From NCBI GenBank assembly GCA_964496475.1, contig CAZBZS010000002.1:56967-120966 (forward strand): a stretch of 64,000 bases of DNA. Direction: 5' to 3'. The notes beneath the pieces are model-generated. The model ran no database searches, had not been told where the DNA came from, and saw only the letters and a list, made by a program, of their open reading frames with translations. This DNA is from an uncultured Chloroflexota bacterium (GTDB lineage Bacteria > Chloroflexota > UBA11872 > VXNJ01). This document shows, in pieces, positions 28,872-52,054 of the stretch. The position numbers were made by a program, and so were the translations under genes. Numbering within the stretch: the stretch's first letter is position 1; every line of letters starts with the position of its first letter.

Positions 28872-29858
28872 CTACCGCTCCAGAGATCGCGCCCAGAGGC
28901 CGCGCATGAAGCCCAAACCATAAACTGCGTGGGTCACCATTATGCCCGCCACCGAAACTGCCCCAAGAATCGGTTGCTTCGTGCGGCCGACGATACCAAG
29001 GAATGTTGCGAAAAGGGCGACGCCATAGACTGCGACTGCAACCCGGTACAACAACCACAATGGCGCAACACCGTGGAAAAGAAGCGGGCCGGCGACTACA
29101 CCGAGAACCCAGATCGCCGGTAGTAAATACGAAATGCGCAGCGACGTCCTTGGGTACTTCCTGGCGAAATGCCCCCTATGTACCCCGTACTGCACTATCT
29201 GGCGAAGGTGCGGTCCGAATAGCGGACGGCGATGGTGATAGACCAGCACGTTCGGGTCGTACCTGATCTTCCCTCCATTTTCCAGCAGATCGAGGCACAA
29301 TTTGGTGTCCTCACCCGGGTAGAAGTGAGTGTCAAACCCGCCCGCCTCGGCGAAAGCTTCACGCCGGACCAGGAAGTTCATAGATGGAAAGTCATCGACC
29401 CAGCGAGCCTCCTCGGGCTGAACTCGATAGCGATAATTCCCGCCACCAAGCCACGACCCGTACACCAATCCCGAGGCTTGCGCGAGAATCCCGTCTGCAG
29501 GCGGGGTGACGCCCGGCCCGCCCACCGCGACTACATCGGGATCTTCAAAAATCGCCACTGCCCGGTCCAGCCAGTCCGATCTCGGGTAGGCGTCGTCGTC
29601 AATAAACGCCAGGATTTCCCCGGCGGCGGCCCTGCTCCCCTGGTCACGCTTGAGAGCAGGGCCCACCGCTGCCGTAGGCAGGACGCTCACCCCGTCTAGC
29701 CCGTTCGGAATCGGCTCATCCGGGAGGACGATCGTTTCGATCCGGGGGTAGTCCAAATCCTCGATCGCGGCCAGGCATTCGTATAGAAGAGGACCCGGCC
29801 CCTTACAGGGCACGATGATGGTAACCAGTGGCGCGTCCCGCTGGTCACTCAACCCCAC
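28872..29858 (-). CDS. Glycosyltransferase family 2
   Basis: LVTIIVPCKGPG...; start placed at the GTG/TTG that overlaps the upstream stop (TTGA); C-terminal TM helices. Confidence 0.75.
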   Translation of the reverse strand: MGLSDQRDAPLVTIIVPCKGPGPLLYECLAAIEDLDYPRIETIVLPDEPIPNGLDGVSVLPTAAVGPALKRDQGSRAAAGEILAFIDDDAYPRSDWLDRAVAIFEDPDVVAVGGPGVTPPADGILAQASGLVYGSWLGGGNYRYRVQPEEARWVDDFPSMNFLVRREAFAEAGGFDTHFYPGEDTKLCLDLLENGGKIRYDPNVLVYHHRRPLFGPHLRQIVQYGVHRGHFARKYPRTSLRISYLLPAIWVLGVVAGPLLFHGVAPLWLLYRVAVAVYGVALFATFLGIVGRTKQPILGAVSVAGIMVTHAVYGLGFMRGLWARSLER

Positions 29859-30613
29859 AGGTCTCCTCTGGTCGGGTGCCCCGGATACAGGTCCAGCACC
29901 CTCATCTGCCAGAACACTCGCATCGTGTCTATGAGCATATGTCCGACGGTGCTCGCCCTCACCGAACTCTGGAAGTCCAAATTGATTCCTACTGGGCACT
30001 CAACAATTCGATCAAAGCCTCGCCGCACCGCCAGGGCGAGCAGCTCGATGTCAATGGAAAACCCATCCACCTTCAGATCGGTGAATAGACTCTGGGCGAG
30101 CTCACGGCGCATAAATTTCAAGCCAACTTGCGTGTCGTGAGCCTCCAGATCAAACATCATTTTGACGAGCGTCTGGTAACCAAAGCTATAAAGTCGCCGC
30201 CGAAGGGGATAGTTCACCTCAGAGTCAACATGACGCTTCGAACCGATCGCAATATCGGCCTCGCCATTTTCCACCAGATTGGATGCGACCGCGACCGCCG
30301 CCGGGTCGATGTCCATACCCGCGTCGAGGTATCCCACGATGTCGCCCGAAACCATTTGAAATCCCGCGCGCAGCGCATTGCCTTTCCCTCGATTATTCTC
30401 GATAAGGTGTACTGTCAATTCCTCAAAATTGAGTTCGGAAGCGACCGCCGCCGTCTCATCCATCTGGCCGTCCACTACCAGAACAATCTCGAAATCGTTG
30501 GCGAAACGTGACAGCGTCGATCGCATTCTCTTGAGATCGGCAGCGATGGTTTGCTCCTGCCCAAAGGCCGGTACAACAATCGAGAGGCTTGAATTTAATT
30601 TCTGTAGGACGAT
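29849..30613 (-). CDS. Glycosyltransferase family 2 with no canonical start codon (candidate ATC start at 30613; first ATG at 30526)
   Basis: The open frame extends 50 codons upstream of the first ATG and encodes the conserved GT2 N-terminus LSIVVPAFGQEQTI with no in-frame ATG, GTG or TTG; FEIVLVVDG downstream. Confidence 0.6.
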   Translation of the reverse strand: MVLQKLNSSLSIVVPAFGQEQTIAADLKRMRSTLSRFANDFEIVLVVDGQMDETAAVASELNFEELTVHLIENNRGKGNALRAGFQMVSGDIVGYLDAGMDIDPAAVAVASNLVENGEADIAIGSKRHVDSEVNYPLRRRLYSFGYQTLVKMMFDLEAHDTQVGLKFMRRELAQSLFTDLKVDGFSIDIELLALAVRRGFDRIVECPVGINLDFQSSVRASTVGHMLIDTMRVFWQMRVLDLYPGHPTRGDLWG

Positions 30614-30844
30614 TTCGCTCTCAGGAATTGGGGATTGAGATCTATCGATCGGGCGAGCACTCGGAAACTCTGCCAGTCTTCAAACCCTCGGCCTTGCCCT
30701 GCCAGCGGCCGAATGCCACCGCAATTTACACCACCCGATGAAGGCTGGCTCGGATCAAGTTAATCTTGTTCTAATCGGGTCGGTGCGACGCCCCCTTCCG
30801 ACAGTCTGATTCGAAGCCCGTCTTGGAGTAAACGAGAGAGTTTA

Positions 30845-31795
30845 TTGAAAAGAGCGCTGGTTGCCGGCGGTGCCGGTCTAATCGGTTCGCATCTTTGCGA
30901 GCGGCTTCTCGAACGGGGCTATGAGGTGGTCGGCTTGGACAATTTCCTCTCGTCTTCCCGCGACAATGTCGCCCCTCTGGTGAACCGGCCGGGGTTTACG
31001 TTTTTAGAGCACGATGTCCTTGCGCCACTTCCAGACACCGGCAAGCTCGATGAAATCTACCATCTGGCGAGTCCAGCCAGCCCGGTCTTCTTCGAATCTC
31101 TGGCCGAGGAGATTGCCATGGTCAACTCGGTCGGCACCTGGCAGCTGTTGCAGCATGCCCGGCAGCACAACGCTCGGTTCCTACTGGCGTCGACCTCCGA
31201 GGTTTACGGCAATCCTTTGGAGCATCCGCAGCGCGAGACCTACTTCGGCAATGTCAACACCATCGGGCCCCGCGCGCCTTATGACGAGAGCAAACGCTTC
31301 GCCGAGACACTGACCTATCTGGCCGCGACCCGGTATGGAGTCGACACCCGTATCGTGCGAATTTTCAATACTTACGGGCCGAGGATGAGGGTCGATGACG
31401 GACGTGCCGTTGTCGATTTCATAGGTCGGGCGCTACGAGGTGAGCCGCTAGTCATCTTCGGCGACGGTTCCCAAACCAGAAGCTGGTGTTACGTGACGGA
31501 TATGGCCCGGGGAATCCACCGGGCTATGACCTGCGATGTCGAACCGACGTTCCCGATCAATCTCGGTAACCCCGATGAAATGACGGTTCTTCAAATCGCC
31601 GAGATGGTGATCAAGATGGCCGGCGCTGGGTCCGCACTTGAGTTCGCTCCCCTACCGCCAGATGATCCTGTTCGCCGCCGTCCCGACATCGGCCGGGCTC
31701 GCGAATTGCTCGATTGGGAGCCGCGAGTCACGGTTGAAGATGGGCTCGGCGCTACCGTGGACTGGTATCGAATGCACGCTGGCACAAGCGCATGA
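30845..31795 (+). CDS. uxs: UDP-glucuronate decarboxylase (UDP-xylose synthase)
   Basis: 316 aa; LASTSEVYGNPLEHPQRETYFGNVNTIGPRAPYDESKR...IFNTYGPRM collinear with UXS. Confidence 0.88.
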   Translation: MKRALVAGGAGLIGSHLCERLLERGYEVVGLDNFLSSSRDNVAPLVNRPGFTFLEHDVLAPLPDTGKLDEIYHLASPASPVFFESLAEEIAMVNSVGTWQLLQHARQHNARFLLASTSEVYGNPLEHPQRETYFGNVNTIGPRAPYDESKRFAETLTYLAATRYGVDTRIVRIFNTYGPRMRVDDGRAVVDFIGRALRGEPLVIFGDGSQTRSWCYVTDMARGIHRAMTCDVEPTFPINLGNPDEMTVLQIAEMVIKMAGAGSALEFAPLPPDDPVRRRPDIGRARELLDWEPRVTVEDGLGATVDWYRMHAGTSA

Positions 31796-32033
31796 CCAGC
31801 CTTGGATTGGGAATTTTCGACCGGGACTCGGCGGGTTGGTCGAGGCATTTATTATTTCGTAGATTTGAGTTGTCCTCGTACTGTTGTCGAGGCGACTCTC
31901 TCACCCGGGGCGGATGTCGGAACCGATTCAGTCCGAAGATCCACCTCCTCCGAAATCCGCTGGTCGCGAAATCGGCGGAGACGTTACCGCCAGCCACATT
32001 CCATCTCGAGTCCAATACCCAGGAGCAGCCAGC

Positions 32034-33743
32034 TTGAAAGTCGCGATAAGTTTCCCCCCTTTTAAGAGCGACAAAGGGATTCCACTTCTGTCCCAAAACC
32101 GGCAGTACCAGGTGTTCTCGACCCGCGATAGCGGTGGGTCGGGTGTGGTGCGGCTCATGAACAAATTCGTAGGCGACAACGCGACTATTATTTTCCCGGT
32201 TTTACCGGCCCTGGCGGCGACATTGCTAAAGCAGAATGGCCACGAAGCCATTTGGATGGACGGGATAGCTGAAGGCTGGACTTGGGAAGAATATTGCCGG
32301 CAAATAGAGCTTGCCCGTCCTGAATTGATCGTGATCGAGACGAAGACCCCCAGCGCTCCTGAGATTTACGACTCAATCAGCGAACTAAAGCTGCGCTTCC
32401 CGGAGACGAAAATCGCGCTGCTCGGCGATCACGTCACCGCACTGCCGGAAGAGGCATTTCTCTTCTGCGATGTGGATTTCACCATTCGGGGCGGGCAATT
32501 TGATTTTGCCACCCTCAATCTCGCCAACCACCTGGATCGGGGGGAGGAGCTGGGCGGAGGTGTTTTCTGGCAAGACGGCGATCAGATCTTGAACTCCGGC
32601 CCGGAGCCGGCTCCGCCCGTGCCGGTTGCGTTGCGGCCCCACATCGACCGCGAACTCGTCAAGTGGGAGCTCTACGCGTTCCGAAACGGCAACTTCCTCA
32701 AGAAGGGCACATATGGTTGGGCTACAGGCACAACTGCCGCTGACTGCTGGTGGCGTCGCCGTGTGCCAGGCGGGCCGAAGCGTGGTGGAGGTGGCTGCAC
32801 ATTTTGCTCCTGGACCAGCATGCTTCCGGAATTTTCCGTCCGACCCGTAGACGATTATCTGGACGAACTCGAAAAAATGGCCGAACTAGGCGTCCAGGAA
32901 GTGTTCGACGATACCGGTACCTTCCCAACCGGATCCTGGTTGCGACGGTTCTGCCAGGGAGTCAAAGAGCGCCGTCTCGACAAGGTCCTGATGTTCGGCT
33001 GCAACATGCGGGCCGACGCTCTCACCCGCCAAGAGTACGAGATGCTCGCCGACTCCAATTTCCGGTTCATCCTTTACGGCATCGAGTCCGCAAATCAGCG
33101 GACGCTCGACATTTTGAACAAGGGAACCCTGGTTCAACAGCAGTGGGACTCTGTCCGCTGGGCTAGCGAGGCCGGTCTAGAACCGCACGCCACCTGCATG
33201 GTCGGATACCCCTGGGAGAGCCTTGAAGAAGCCCGTCGTACCGTGGATTACACACGGGAAACTTTTGAGCGGGGCTGGATAAATACCTTGCAGGGCACGA
33301 TCGTGATCCCCTATCCCGGAACCCAGCTTTACGCCCAGGCGCGAGAACGCGACTGGCTGCGGTTCGACGGCCCGGAGAACTGGGCCCGCTATGACATGCG
33401 AGAACCGGTGCTGAAATCCCCAATATCTAGAGGCGAAATTATGGGTCTAGTTCAGAGCCTGTACACGAGCTTTCTGAGTCCGCGATACATGGCTAGAACG
33501 GTCCGCCGGGCCACCCGTAGCAGAGACCATTTTCGTTACTATGTGGTGCGTGGCTCCAAATATCTCGTGGGCCATCTGCTCGATTTCCGGAAAAGCCAGG
33601 TAGAGACGGAATCTGCCAACGGGTCACTGCAAGAGGCTGACACGGGTGTGGCTGATTTGCCGGTCGAGCTATATACAGCAGGTGGGTCCACAGCCCCACT
33701 TCCAGAGGGCGTGAGGAGTTTGGTCAAGGTGGAGTCCAAATAG
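32034..33743 (+). CDS. B12-binding domain radical SAM protein (class B), with a non-canonical Cys spacing
   Basis: N-terminal cobalamin-binding Rossmann domain; core ...TTAADCWWRRRVPGGPKRGGGGCTFCSW (C-x16-C-x2-C); TTG start with AGGAG RBS; the ORF is open from 31884. Confidence 0.7.
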   Translation: MKVAISFPPFKSDKGIPLLSQNRQYQVFSTRDSGGSGVVRLMNKFVGDNATIIFPVLPALAATLLKQNGHEAIWMDGIAEGWTWEEYCRQIELARPELIVIETKTPSAPEIYDSISELKLRFPETKIALLGDHVTALPEEAFLFCDVDFTIRGGQFDFATLNLANHLDRGEELGGGVFWQDGDQILNSGPEPAPPVPVALRPHIDRELVKWELYAFRNGNFLKKGTYGWATGTTAADCWWRRRVPGGPKRGGGGCTFCSWTSMLPEFSVRPVDDYLDELEKMAELGVQEVFDDTGTFPTGSWLRRFCQGVKERRLDKVLMFGCNMRADALTRQEYEMLADSNFRFILYGIESANQRTLDILNKGTLVQQQWDSVRWASEAGLEPHATCMVGYPWESLEEARRTVDYTRETFERGWINTLQGTIVIPYPGTQLYAQARERDWLRFDGPENWARYDMREPVLKSPISRGEIMGLVQSLYTSFLSPRYMARTVRRATRSRDHFRYYVVRGSKYLVGHLLDFRKSQVETESANGSLQEADTGVADLPVELYTAGGSTAPLPEGVRSLVKVESK

Positions 33744-33882
33744 AGGTCGATAGCGCGAACTATTTCCCACCGGTCCGGAACGCCTGGCAGGCGGGGCGAG
33801 GTGACAGTGGCTCCCGAACATACCCGGTGACGCCACGAACAATGCGGCTCCCTGAGTCAGCGCACCCGATTGCGGATGTGGG

Positions 33883-35241
33883 CTACTGCAGACCGCCTAA
33901 CGGCGGACTATCCAATTCTCCGGCCTCAATGTCTTCTTTGCTGACCTGTAAATGGTGAAGGTAGATCTGTCGAAACAGCACCGCCGTCGCGACCGCTAGA
34001 AACGCCGCCATCACCGCTCCACTCGCCAGAAGCACCTGCGCGAATTCGATTGTCGACTCAGCCCAGTACAGATATGCTCCGGCCTGGGCTGCTGCGATCG
34101 GAACCAGTCCGACCCATATCCAATTCCAACCGGCGGCAATAAGAATGTACGTGAGGAACAACGATGTCGTCAGTAACGCAGTCCCCAGCAGATATACCTG
34201 CATGAGCCCCGCGTCGGCGGCGTAGCGATCTCCCACCAGTACGTTGTGCAGGAAGCCCGGAACGGCGAACCCCGCGATTATTGTCGGGATAGCGATCGCC
34301 GCCATCACACTTACGCTGTTGCGGATCAAGGGCCAGCGAAGGCGACGTGACGTGAACATATCGCGAAATCGCGGCAGGATTAGCAACCCCAGCACGAAGC
34401 CTGCATAAAAGATCACTCGCCCCGCCAGAGCCGCCGCCGAAAACGACTCCATGGCTTCCCCGGAAATCCGGTAGTTGGCGATCACGACATCTATCGCCTG
34501 CACGCCGAATATGGCGAACGTTGCCGGCACCGACCTAAGCTGAATGCGCAGCGTGTGCCAGAGGCTCTCCGAAACCGTGCTACGCCGGTCTCCGAATTTC
34601 CCTCCCTTTGGGAACAGGAGCCAGATTGCTAGCAGTGTCGAAACCAGATAACCAAATGCGAACCCAGACGTCGCACCCGACACACCAAATCCGATCGCCA
34701 CAAACACAATCGCCAACACAACCCGTGAGGCCGCCTCGATAAGCATCACCAGGCCAAGCGAACCGAATCGGTGGGCCCCCTGGAACGCGCCCCGGAACGC
34801 CGACAGTACGAGCGATAGGAGGAATGTGATAGCCAGCCAAACAAGGACACTGTTCTGGCTGAAATGAAACACGTTCTTCAGCGGACCTGCGAAGATCCCA
34901 AAGGCCGCGACCAGGACCAGTCCAACCAGCCCGGCCGTTAGCGCTGCTCGGAGCGCGAACGGCCATGTTTGTTGTGAACCGCCACGTCCAACCACGTGGC
35001 CGGTTCCCACAGCGACCGCCGCCTGAAATGAGTTGGCCGGGAACAGGATGATCGCTATGAACGACACAATCGCCAGCACGACTGGATACTCACTTGGTTC
35101 CATCAATCTGGCCATCGCCAACTGGTACACATACGACAGCGCGTTAGCCGTCATCGCCAGAGCCAGGAACACGATCGATTGCCGCGCCGCCCCGCGCAGC
35201 CGCGCACTCCCGGGGGAAGGCGGCACTGCTCGGGGGCTCAA
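33883..35241 (-). CDS. Polysaccharide biosynthesis protein (Wzx-like MOP flippase)
   Basis: 452 aa, about 12-14 TM helices. Confidence 0.7.
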   Translation of the reverse strand: MSPRAVPPSPGSARLRGAARQSIVFLALAMTANALSYVYQLAMARLMEPSEYPVVLAIVSFIAIILFPANSFQAAVAVGTGHVVGRGGSQQTWPFALRAALTAGLVGLVLVAAFGIFAGPLKNVFHFSQNSVLVWLAITFLLSLVLSAFRGAFQGAHRFGSLGLVMLIEAASRVVLAIVFVAIGFGVSGATSGFAFGYLVSTLLAIWLLFPKGGKFGDRRSTVSESLWHTLRIQLRSVPATFAIFGVQAIDVVIANYRISGEAMESFSAAALAGRVIFYAGFVLGLLILPRFRDMFTSRRLRWPLIRNSVSVMAAIAIPTIIAGFAVPGFLHNVLVGDRYAADAGLMQVYLLGTALLTTSLFLTYILIAAGWNWIWVGLVPIAAAQAGAYLYWAESTIEFAQVLLASGAVMAAFLAVATAVLFRQIYLHHLQVSKEDIEAGELDSPPLGGLQ

Positions 35242-35275: not shown

Positions 35276-35947
35276 CTAAAAAAATAAATCTCGAAGCCAG
35301 CAGTACACGTAACGTATCCATGTGCGCCGCAGTGATATCTTCGAGTGGCCGGCGCCGCGCTCGAATTCGTGGCTTGGCACCTCCCCTGCTCGATAGCCCA
35401 TCTTCAACACCTTCATCACCATTTCCTGCTCGATGGTGGGAAGGTTCTCCCTCAGGCCCAAATCGATCGCGACGTCCCGGCGTATCGCCCGAAATCCGTT
35501 CTGGGAATCGGTCAGACGAACATTGAACCGGTAGTTTATGCCCAGCATGATGATCTGCTGGCCAAGCCACCGCACGAAGCGGTCCATGTCGCCCGTCATC
35601 TCGTCGCTGCCACCCCGAGGACGGGATCCCACCACAAGATCGGCTTCATCGCTCAGTAATGGCGCAAGCAGCTTCGGTATGTCCTTTGGTACATGCGAAC
35701 CGTCGGCATCGACAAAAACCAAAACGTCCCCGGTGGCCTCTCTGATCGCCGTCCTCACCGCATCGCCCTTACCCATACCGCCGTCGTAGACGACCCGCGC
35801 TCCAAACTCCTTCGCGATCTCCGTCGTACCATCTTCCGAGTGACCGTCCACCACGATCAATTCATCAGCGTACTGTTTGACGGCGCCCAGAACCGAGCCG
35901 ATGGTTTCGGCTTCATTCTTGGCAGGGACCACCACGGTAATCTTCAT
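35276..35947 (-). CDS. GT2 glycosyltransferase (dolichyl/polyprenyl-phosphate glycosyltransferase-like)
   Basis: MKITVVVPAKNEAETI...LIVVDGHSEDGT; start placed at the internal ATG. Confidence 0.8.
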   Translation of the reverse strand: MKITVVVPAKNEAETIGSVLGAVKQYADELIVVDGHSEDGTTEIAKEFGARVVYDGGMGKGDAVRTAIREATGDVLVFVDADGSHVPKDIPKLLAPLLSDEADLVVGSRPRGGSDEMTGDMDRFVRWLGQQIIMLGINYRFNVRLTDSQNGFRAIRRDVAIDLGLRENLPTIEQEMVMKVLKMGYRAGEVPSHEFERGAGHSKISLRRTWIRYVYCWLRDLFF

Positions 35948-50170: not shown

Positions 50171-52054
50171 TTGTTCACGATAGGTACCGCTGGGCACATC
50201 GACCACGGCAAATCCTCGCTCGTAGAGGCCCTCACCGGCGTCCATCCGGATCGCCTGCCTGAGGAAAAGCAGCGCGGCATGACCATCGACCTCGGCTTCG
50301 CCTCATTGACCTTGCCTCGGGGCGATTTGATCGGGATTGTGGACGTACCCGGGCACGAGCGCTTCGTCCGCAACATGGTCGCCGGCGTTGGCGGCATCGA
50401 CGCCGCCCTTCTGGTTGTGGCGGCAGACGAAGGCGTAATGCCCCAAACCCGCGAACATCTGGACATCATCGATTTGATGGGTATTGATCGCGGGGTGGTC
50501 GCACTTACAAAAGCCGATCTCATCGACGACGAAGACTGGATCGAGCTGGTAACCGCCGACATCCTTGAGCTGCTGGACCACACGTCGCTTCGAAACTCCA
50601 CCGTAGTCCCGGTCTCCGCCGTCCGCCGCCGGGGTCTGGACAAGCTACTTACCGAACTGGATTCCGCCTTGGCCGGGATCGACCGCCCCAATCTCTCAGG
50701 GGTCCCTCGACTACCGGTGGATCGCTCCTTCTCCATCCCTGGTTTTGGCACCGTAGTCACCGGCACTCTGCAGGATGGGTTCCTTGAAGTCGGAGCCGAA
50801 CTAGAAATTCTGCCCGCCGGTGGCCGAACTAGAGTGAGAGGTATCCAAATGCACGGTCAAAGTGTGGAGCGCGCCGAACCTGGCGCCCGCACCGCCGTTA
50901 ATCTTGCCGGTGTATCCGCACTCGATCTTCCTCGGGGAACGGTTCTCGCCCTTCCCGGAACTATGACCCCCACCCGTCTCATGGATGTCCAATTCCAAAT
51001 GTCGCCTCACGCACCGTTCTCCTTGCACAGCGGCAGGGACATAGCTTTCCACACGGGAACGTCTGAAGTACTAGCGGCCGTTCGCCTCCTGGAGAGCGAT
51101 GTCCTTTACGCGGGCCAGACCGGCTGGGCGCAAATGCGCGCTAGGGCTCCGCTGGTTGTGTGCCCCGGCGATCACTTCATCGTCCGGCAGTTATCTCCGG
51201 CCATCACTCTGGGCGGAGGAGTCGTGGTGGCGCCCCGCGCCGCCCGGATTCGCCGCCATGATCAACGAGCCATCCAACTGCTTGAGCGGCTCACCGGGGG
51301 CAGCACCGTTGATTTGTTGCTGGCCACGCTCGATCCCCACGGCAAACTCGACCGCGACGATCTCGCCCGGCGAGCGGATCTATCGGAGTCGGAGTTCTCC
51401 GACGCACTGGATTCGGCGCTCGCCGAGAAGCGGATCGTCGAAGTCGACTCAACACTTTTTGCTGTCGAGGAAGTGCATCGCCTTAGCGAGAAACTGCTCT
51501 CAACCCTTAAACAATTTCACGCCGCCAACCCGTTACGCCCAGGCATACCGCGGGAAGAGCTGAGAAACCAGCTTGGGCTTTCCACCGACAATTTCGTCGG
51601 CGTTATGCAACGATTTATCGATGAAGGTATCGCCAGCGGAGGAGACACCTTCATCGCCCTCCCAGAACACACACCTGCGCTCACTCCCGAAATAGAGGCC
51701 AACGTCCGATATTTACTCGGCCAACTCTCCGGTTCCGGCCTGGAGGTGCCCCCACTGCGAGACATTGCGGCCAGTCTAGGAATCGGGGACGAAGTGCTGC
51801 AGGCCCTGGAGGATGACGGGCGGCTGATTCGGGTGACCCCCAACATCGGTTATGAACGCGCCGCCTTCAACAGCCTTGTGGAGCAGGTCAAGACTCTTAT
51901 CGACGAACGCGGCCGGATCGATGTTGCCGGACTACGTGATCAGTTCGGCAGCAGTAGGAAATACTGCCTCGCGCTGCTCGAGCACCTGGACTCGACCGGC
52001 GTGACAAGACGGGTCGGCGACGACCGAGTGCTGCGAGCCCGCCGAAACGCCTAG
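50171..52054 (+). CDS. selB: Selenocysteine-specific translation elongation factor
   Basis: 627 aa; TAGHIDHGKSSLVEALTGVHPDRLPEEKQRGMTIDLGFA is near-identical in pattern to E. coli SelB; C-terminal winged-helix region ...SRKYCLALLEHLDSTGVTRRVGDDRVLR. Confidence 0.9.
   Translation: MFTIGTAGHIDHGKSSLVEALTGVHPDRLPEEKQRGMTIDLGFASLTLPRGDLIGIVDVPGHERFVRNMVAGVGGIDAALLVVAADEGVMPQTREHLDIIDLMGIDRGVVALTKADLIDDEDWIELVTADILELLDHTSLRNSTVVPVSAVRRRGLDKLLTELDSALAGIDRPNLSGVPRLPVDRSFSIPGFGTVVTGTLQDGFLEVGAELEILPAGGRTRVRGIQMHGQSVERAEPGARTAVNLAGVSALDLPRGTVLALPGTMTPTRLMDVQFQMSPHAPFSLHSGRDIAFHTGTSEVLAAVRLLESDVLYAGQTGWAQMRARAPLVVCPGDHFIVRQLSPAITLGGGVVVAPRAARIRRHDQRAIQLLERLTGGSTVDLLLATLDPHGKLDRDDLARRADLSESEFSDALDSALAEKRIVEVDSTLFAVEEVHRLSEKLLSTLKQFHAANPLRPGIPREELRNQLGLSTDNFVGVMQRFIDEGIASGGDTFIALPEHTPALTPEIEANVRYLLGQLSGSGLEVPPLRDIAASLGIGDEVLQALEDDGRLIRVTPNIGYERAAFNSLVEQVKTLIDERGRIDVAGLRDQFGSSRKYCLALLEHLDSTGVTRRVGDDRVLRARRNA

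Follow-up and report, generated by a model that had tools for sequence, protein, structure and literature searches.

Documented near-cognate start codons in bacteria are few and are known from infC, pcnB, and Deinococcus dnaA and rpsL. The ATC of dnaA in Deinococcus and the ATT or ATA of infC are experimentally supported natural starts (PMC2830850), and in Escherichia coli, non-canonical codons initiate at 0.01–2% of the AUG level (bioRxiv 10.1101/063800). Here, a gene encoding a family 2 glycosyltransferase (GT2) was analyzed on the minus strand of a 64,000-nucleotide stretch of DNA (contig CAZBZS010000002.1, positions 56,967 to 120,966, assembly GCA_964496475.1) from an uncultured marine Chloroflexota bacterium. 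This whole stretch is called the window below, and coordinates are given in it. According to the comparison of orthologous loci, translation of the gene is likely to start at the ATC codon at 30613-30611. The proposed conserved AUC/AUU start is a new example of a known, rare bacterial start type and involves no new mechanism.

Among the described cases, Deinococcus dnaA (Baudet et al. 2010, PMC2830850) resembles the window GT2 gene in that its conserved N-terminus lies upstream of any canonical start codon. Its ATC is conserved among the orthologs of the genus, and its earlier annotations had heterogeneous, wrong N-termini, as in the GT2 case. The two genes differ in family and phylum, and the dnaA start rests on TMPP-labelled N-terminal peptides, whereas that of the GT2 gene rests on comparative evidence. 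In infC (AUU/AUA) and E. coli pcnB (AUU), selection has retained a near-cognate AUN codon instead of AUG, which limits translation. The infC codon belongs to a demonstrated autoregulatory loop of initiation factor 3 (IF3); no such loop is known for the GT2 gene, and infC itself is absent from the window. Searching the literature for Chloroflexi or SAR202 genes with non-canonical starts yielded no relevant report. A non-canonical start is already implicit in one GenBank annotation: HJN39230.1, a 255-residue ortholog with ~72% identity from a Chloroflexota metagenome-assembled genome (GCA_036012385.1), reads MAPSRLDAKLSVVVP..., and its NCBI coding sequence already begins at the homologous ATT (911-913 of locus L174). 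This start was set by automatic annotation and carries no comment or experimental support.

The GT2 gene and its 5' region contain the following features, listed in the direction of transcription.

30680-30682, minus strand: in-frame TGA closing the open frame upstream, read from the window sequence
30628-30633, minus strand: CCCCAA run with a 1-nt length polymorphism among close relatives
30626-30628, minus strand: ATT five codons before the ATC, a secondary near-cognate candidate
30618-30622, minus strand: GAGAG, purine-rich and resembling part of a Shine-Dalgarno sequence, located 4 nt before the ATC
30611-30613, minus strand: proposed initiation codon ATC (AUC), to be read as formylmethionine (fMet), from the ortholog alignment
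29849-30613, minus strand: full GT2 coding sequence of 254 codons plus the TGA stop at 29851-29849, from Pfam, the structure model, and the ratio of nonsynonymous to synonymous substitution rates (dN/dS)
30566-30586, minus strand: codons for strand β1 (residues 10-16, LSIVVPA), followed by the F-G-Q-E loop, from DSSP on the model and the alignment with 5mlz
30524-30526, minus strand: ATG, the first canonical in-frame start, internal Met30 of the full product and the gene callers' start, giving the 225-residue product P0132

Between the TGA (30682-30680) and the ATG (30526-30524), the frame contains 51 sense codons without ATG, GTG, or TTG, and this start-less stretch translates as RLAEFPSARPIDRSQSPIPESEIVLQKLNSSLSIVVPAFGQEQTIAADLKR. 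The original prediction had counted 50 sense codons; its translation of the stretch, the lack of canonical starts there, the ATC at 30613, and GAGAG 4 nt upstream of it were all reproduced. The probability of a start-less run of 51 codons was ~0.03 with the in-frame start-codon frequency of 13 window genes and ~0.12 with the raw trinucleotide frequency; by itself, the run is only mildly unusual. Since it is not very improbable alone, its significance rests on the content of the stretch, where a conserved, selected domain N-terminus inside the run exceeds chance. The GT2 domain, with β1 and the following loop (LSIVVPAFGQE, residues 10-20), begins ~20 codons upstream of the ATG, and the tryptic peptide LNSSLSIVVPAFGQEQTIAADLK is encoded upstream of it. 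The extended protein matched PF00535 (gathering cut-off of 23.3 bits) with 74.2 bits over profile positions 1-168, starting at the S of LSIVVP, whereas the ATG-started protein reached 64.5 bits and was aligned only from profile position 19. The full product was also matched by PF13641. The reading frame and the PF00535 match from profile position 1 confirm the earlier claim that the N-terminal GT2 motif precedes every canonical start codon of the frame.

The AlphaFold model of the 254-residue product translated from the ATC, calculated with a 40-sequence alignment, has a GT-A fold (predicted local distance difference test (pLDDT) of 90.3, predicted template modeling score (pTM) of 0.88). In the model, β1 comprises residues 10-16 (DSSP E10-16), helix α1 comprises residues 23-37, and the ATG at 30526 corresponds to residue 30; judging from these positions, a start at this ATG would remove β1, the PAFGQE loop, and the first third of α1. 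Foldseek comparison gave a probability of 1.00 and query-normalized TM-scores of 0.70-0.78 to ArnC and DPMS, and the best structural matches were the catalytic domains of DPMS (dolichyl-phosphate mannose synthase, 5mlz), ArnC, GtrB, and GpgS (glucosyl-3-phosphoglycerate synthase). The alignment with 5mlz begins at query residue 9 (SLSIVVPAFGQEQ versus KVSVIIPTYNEREN), so placing the β1 segment LSIVVPAFGQE against KVSVIIPTYNE of DPMS. In the DxD region, YLDAGMDID is aligned with VMDADLQHP of 5mlz; D97 is invariant, G99 replaces the second Asp, giving D-A-G where DPMS has D-A-D, and D101 is nearly invariant. The GT-A catalytic domain and the N-terminal β1-P-x-[FY]-x-[EQ] segment are common to the window protein and the polyprenyl-phosphate glycosyltransferases DPMS (5mlz), ArnC (9bhc), and GtrB (9nyc) of the GT2 family. 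The identity to these proteins is only ~20-24%, and the 254-residue window protein lacks their C-terminal transmembrane helices. On the model, the gene product is predicted to be a soluble GT-A/GT2 glycosyltransferase that is complete with its 254 residues and has a catalytic domain of the DPMS/ArnC/GtrB-like type.

The protein search retrieved close relatives at 70-89% identity, Chloroflexota proteins at ~50%, and more distant Patescibacteria proteins. Ortholog DNA was taken from ENA, Logan, NCBI, and JGI contigs, and codons were counted back from the [VI][VI]P motif of β1, which places the window ATC (30613-30611) at codon -12. The codon at this position was distributed as follows.

ATC at -12: the window (identical to L169-L171), L001, L090, L089/L009, L173, L003, L002, and L172
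ATT at -12: L004/L005, L010/L091, L006-L008/L011, and L174
ATG at -12: L012, outgroup Chloroflexota
GTG at -12: L013, L014, and L017, outgroup Chloroflexota

Codon -12 was thus ATC in eight distinct sequences, with the window counted as one, and ATT in four distinct, more distant sequences of the clade; both codons are written below as ATY. In three further outgroup loci, an ATG is found at -13, -15, or -9. When the proteins are aligned, Met1 of P0010, P0011, P0016, and P0019 falls on the Ile encoded by the window ATC. A canonical start 3-25 codons before β1 was present in 129 of the 147 loci with the family signature, and all 18 loci lacking one belong to the ATY clade. No other canonical or near-cognate codon is common to the whole clade (12 distinct sequences). 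In the ATT subgroup, no in-frame canonical start was detected from the upstream stop to β1; the only nearby canonical codon is a GTG within β1, which was called as the start of 'MPAYAQ...'. The rare non-AUG start at ATC 30613 offered by the original prediction is well supported by these comparative data, with ATC or ATT in 12 of 12 distinct clade sequences at the position homologous to the outgroup ATG/GTG start. Comparison establishes a position-conserved AUY in place of the ancestral AUG/GUG, the lack of a conserved alternative start, and upstream codons that are selected and structurally needed.

The sequence following the ATY codon evolves as protein, under strong purifying selection. For the window compared with L001, L090, L089, and L003 of the ATC group, dN/dS was 0.09-0.12, and for L004 compared with L006 of the ATT subgroup, it was 0.08; dS was 0.45-0.76 within the subgroups and saturated between them. 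From ATY to β1, the variation is largely synonymous (CCG/CCA/CCC; TTA/CTA/TTG/CTG, all Leu; TCT/TCA/TCC; CGG/AGG). The β1 segment is translated, since its codons also vary synonymously among the orthologs (CTC/CTA, TCG/TCT/TCA/TCC, GTA/GTG, and CCG/CCC).

The leader before ATY shows a different pattern. Its C/A run is C4A2 in the window, C2A3 in L089 and L173, and C2A4 in L001 and L090. In the four codons before ATY (-16 to -13), which are purine-rich throughout, changes are mostly at first codon positions. The sequence CCTGAGAGCGAA before the ATC is nearly invariant in six close ATC-group sequences, and L002 and L172 have AAGGGCAAA at the same spacing, with the four-codon leader GAAAAGGGCAAA. 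The in-frame translations upstream of ATY are unrelated between the two subgroups. The 1-nt length polymorphism and the first-position, purine-keeping changes fit a non-coding leader, and the four codons before ATY look more like a ribosome-binding region than a coding sequence. GAGAG or AAGGG is located 4 nt upstream of the ATC in the ATC subgroup, and the ATT subgroup has only a weak GGCGAC; other window genes have GGAG, GGAGG, or GAGAGAG 5-11 nt before their starts.

Several other explanations of the locus were weighed. The gene callers' choice, in which the ATG at 30526 is the true start of the 225-residue protein and the upstream similarity is a relic, is very improbable. This ATG is the only canonical in-frame start, automatic callers took it for the window sequence (P0132 is identical to the window's ATG-started ORF, i.e., open reading frame) and likewise for P0129, and the shorter product still exceeds the PF00535 cut-off with its 64.5 bits. 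The codon is not conserved, however, being replaced by ATA in L001 and L002, CTG in L004, and ATC in L006. The 29 codons before it encode β1, the PAFGQE loop, and the start of α1 in a confident model and vary synonymously across sequences with saturated synonymous sites. From general knowledge of GT-A enzymes and the 5mlz alignment, neither folding nor sugar-nucleotide binding would be expected of a GT-A domain that lacks its first core strand. Orthologs without the upstream motif that start at the downstream ATG, named in advance as the contrary case, were not found. An even smaller probability is given to the loss of the start through a sequencing or assembly error or a recent mutation, leaving a pseudogene or a silent gene. 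The ATC is one base away from ATG, and the window comes from metagenome-type data, but the three assemblies L169-L171 are base-identical to the window over 1100 nt including the ATC (two or more of these assemblies derive from one sequencing run), and ATY occurs in 12 distinct sequences that come from separate samples and projects, none with a canonical codon at this position. The frame is intact in all clade sequences but L003, with the low dN/dS of both subgroups. The sequencing error considered in the original prediction is refuted by the identical assemblies and the many orthologs, and its mutated start codon holds only in the evolutionary sense, as a change from ATG/GTG to ATY in an ancestor; as gene loss, it disagrees with the dN/dS of 0.08-0.12. 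In L003 (ERZ23495128 scaffold_187285), the frame stops early, after 230 codons rather than the usual 254, and the C-terminus, close to the contig end, has diverged; an assembly error or frameshift in this short scaffold is the likely cause.

A start at some other non-canonical or lineage-specific codon, such as ATT 30628 or CTG 30676 in the window, or GTG or TTG codons of relatives further upstream or near β1, has a low probability, though it is the least improbable of these alternatives. In its favor, most ATC-group sequences carry ATT at codon -17 (30628-30626), where L172 has ATG; the counterpart of the window's CTG 30676 is GTG in L003; and an in-frame GTG occurs at -28 in L001, as does a TTG at -7 in L002 and L172. 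None of these positions is common to the clade: at codon -17, L003 has TGT and the ATT subgroup has GGA or CAA, codon -33 is GGC in L001, and codon -7 is TTA or CTA in most sequences. The GTG of L001 is in frame solely through the extra base in the C/A run and is absent in L090, and no protein-level conservation is seen upstream of ATY. As remote as a lost start is the proposal that an out-of-frame upstream ORF (GTG 30660 to TAA 30599-30597) feeds ribosomes into the gene by programmed frameshifting or termination-reinitiation. A 21-codon ORF in the +1 frame, overlapping the ATC, is present in both the window and L003, but it is not conserved, the GTG being in the GT2 frame in L001 and missing in L090, and no such ORF occurring in the ATT subgroup. 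Neither a slippery site nor an Rfam frameshift element nor a conserved structure was detected in the leader. A search for an RNA element with Rfam at permissive E-values over 30400-31000 gave only two chance-level matches, and the whole window gave no match at the gathering thresholds. RNAalifold of nine leaders gave -9.3 kcal/mol with little covariation, and the single-sequence fold had z = -0.76.

Some observations weigh against initiation at the ATC. GAGAG is no more than a partial Shine-Dalgarno-like element, its counterpart in the ATT subgroup (GGCGAC) is weak, and the conservation of one codon among related sequences is statistically weak when taken alone. Most ATC-group members carry the second near-cognate ATT five codons upstream. 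In the sublineage of L002 and L172 (ERZ23498628 scaffold_481162), with ~80% identity, the in-frame TTG lies five codons after the ATC, and the ATG of L172 lies five codons before it, where L002 has ATT; the start there may have shifted, and a canonical start may be regained or newly adopted in this sublineage. Finally, the low expression that the GT2 gene probably has, and its possible dependence on IF3, are extrapolated from other bacteria.

A general habit of non-canonical starts in this genome was tested with seven other window ORFs that have long start-less 5' stretches, including a sulfatase, another GT2, a GFO/IDH oxidoreductase, SelB, and an epimerase. Two of the seven had no Pfam match. 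In the other five, 25-56 codons separate the upstream stop from the first canonical start, and the Pfam domain begins after this start in all five. At least within this window, the feature is specific to this GT2 gene.

The gene order is the same in all orthologous loci and comprises a divergent gene for an NAD-dependent sugar epimerase/dehydratase, the GT2 gene, two more GT2 genes, and a convergent gene for an AsnB-like amidotransferase. Two further features flank the GT2 coding sequence.

29849-29858, minus strand: start of the next GT2 gene, GTG 29858 or TTG 29852, overlapping the TGA of the first gene (...GTGGGGTTGA...)
30709-30767, no strand assigned: conserved block in the divergent intergenic region between the GT2 and epimerase genes

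The called genes in the orthologous loci overlap by 4-10 nt, and the stop/start overlaps suggest translational coupling along the three-GT2 operon. The intergenic block is present in all ATY-clade loci and absent from the outgroup loci; on the minus strand, its invariant core is AAGATTAnCnTG ... CAnCnGnTGG..GT...TTGC, and on the plus strand, it contains TAATCT with a conserved TG 17 nt upstream. The block had no Rfam match and a weak consensus fold, and a scan of the intergenic region for sigma-70 promoters and terminators found none. The block is probably promoter or operator DNA, perhaps the promoter of the epimerase gene or else an operator. The sequence AAGATTAnCnTG was rejected as a mark of a regulon: its second exact match in the window, at 35933-35944, encodes MKITVVVP, the N-terminal residues of another GT2. 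The gene of this GT2 (35276-35946, minus strand) has an ordinary ATG start (MKITVVVPAKNEAETI), and the longest-ORF listing extends it by ~30 codons too many, to TTG 36037.

Several neighboring genes were characterized as well. The AsnB-like glutamine-dependent amidotransferase (26108, plus strand) was nearest to the amidotransferase model of the XrtA/PEP-CTERM system, below its cut-off; it starts at TTG, directly followed by the catalytic Cys2. Other well-pinned window genes with TTG starts are the epimerases at 30845 and 12985 and SelB. Beside the epimerase gene, in the region 31884-35241, a gene for a B12-binding radical SAM protein, only distantly HpnJ-like and far below the cut-off, is followed by a minus-strand ORF for a multi-pass membrane protein of 452 residues without an NCBIfam match. 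Both are conserved neighbors in the orthologous loci and part of an uncharacterized glycan cluster. A full SelB (50171-52054, plus strand) with GTP_EFTU and SelB winged-helix domains was found, so the organism probably uses selenocysteine. No tRNA gene was detected in the window, hence neither the initiator tRNA nor tRNA-Sec.

With initiation at the ATC of the GT2 gene as the preferred explanation, the initiator tRNA would read the near-cognate AUC as fMet and yield the product MVLQKLNSSLSIVVPAFGQE..., and the partial GAGAG element 4 nt upstream would probably help initiation. The ancestral AUG/GUG would have changed to AUY in the common ancestor of a marine Chloroflexota clade and then been kept, the two subgroups having AUC and AUU, respectively, with the protein under purifying selection. 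By analogy with the E. coli measurements on non-canonical codons and with infC, pcnB, and Deinococcus dnaA, initiation at AUY would be inefficient and IF3-sensitive and would act as a built-in throttle on the first gene of the three-GT2 operon, and its low output may pass to the overlapping downstream GT2 genes. That AUY is a selected regulatory device tying surface-glycan synthesis to the state of the translation machinery (IF3 level, temperature, and growth state) is doubtful. If it were true, the stop/start overlaps would pass the control to the two downstream GT2 genes of the envelope-glycan operon, and the conserved intergenic block would be the transcriptional layer of the same control.

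For annotation, the finding concerns the whole family. The members of the ortholog cluster carry ten different lengths (225, 229, 241, 242, 243, 249, 255, 259, 270, and 291 residues) because gene callers are limited to ATG, GTG, and TTG; most models lose the first core strand or gain spurious extensions, and the truncated ones mislead domain and structure analyses. A near-cognate start kept over a divergence with saturated synonymous sites would provide a clean comparative example from an uncultured phylum. The GT2 gene would thereby be a specific test case for start-codon stringency in Chloroflexota, and a systematically mis-called family would be corrected.

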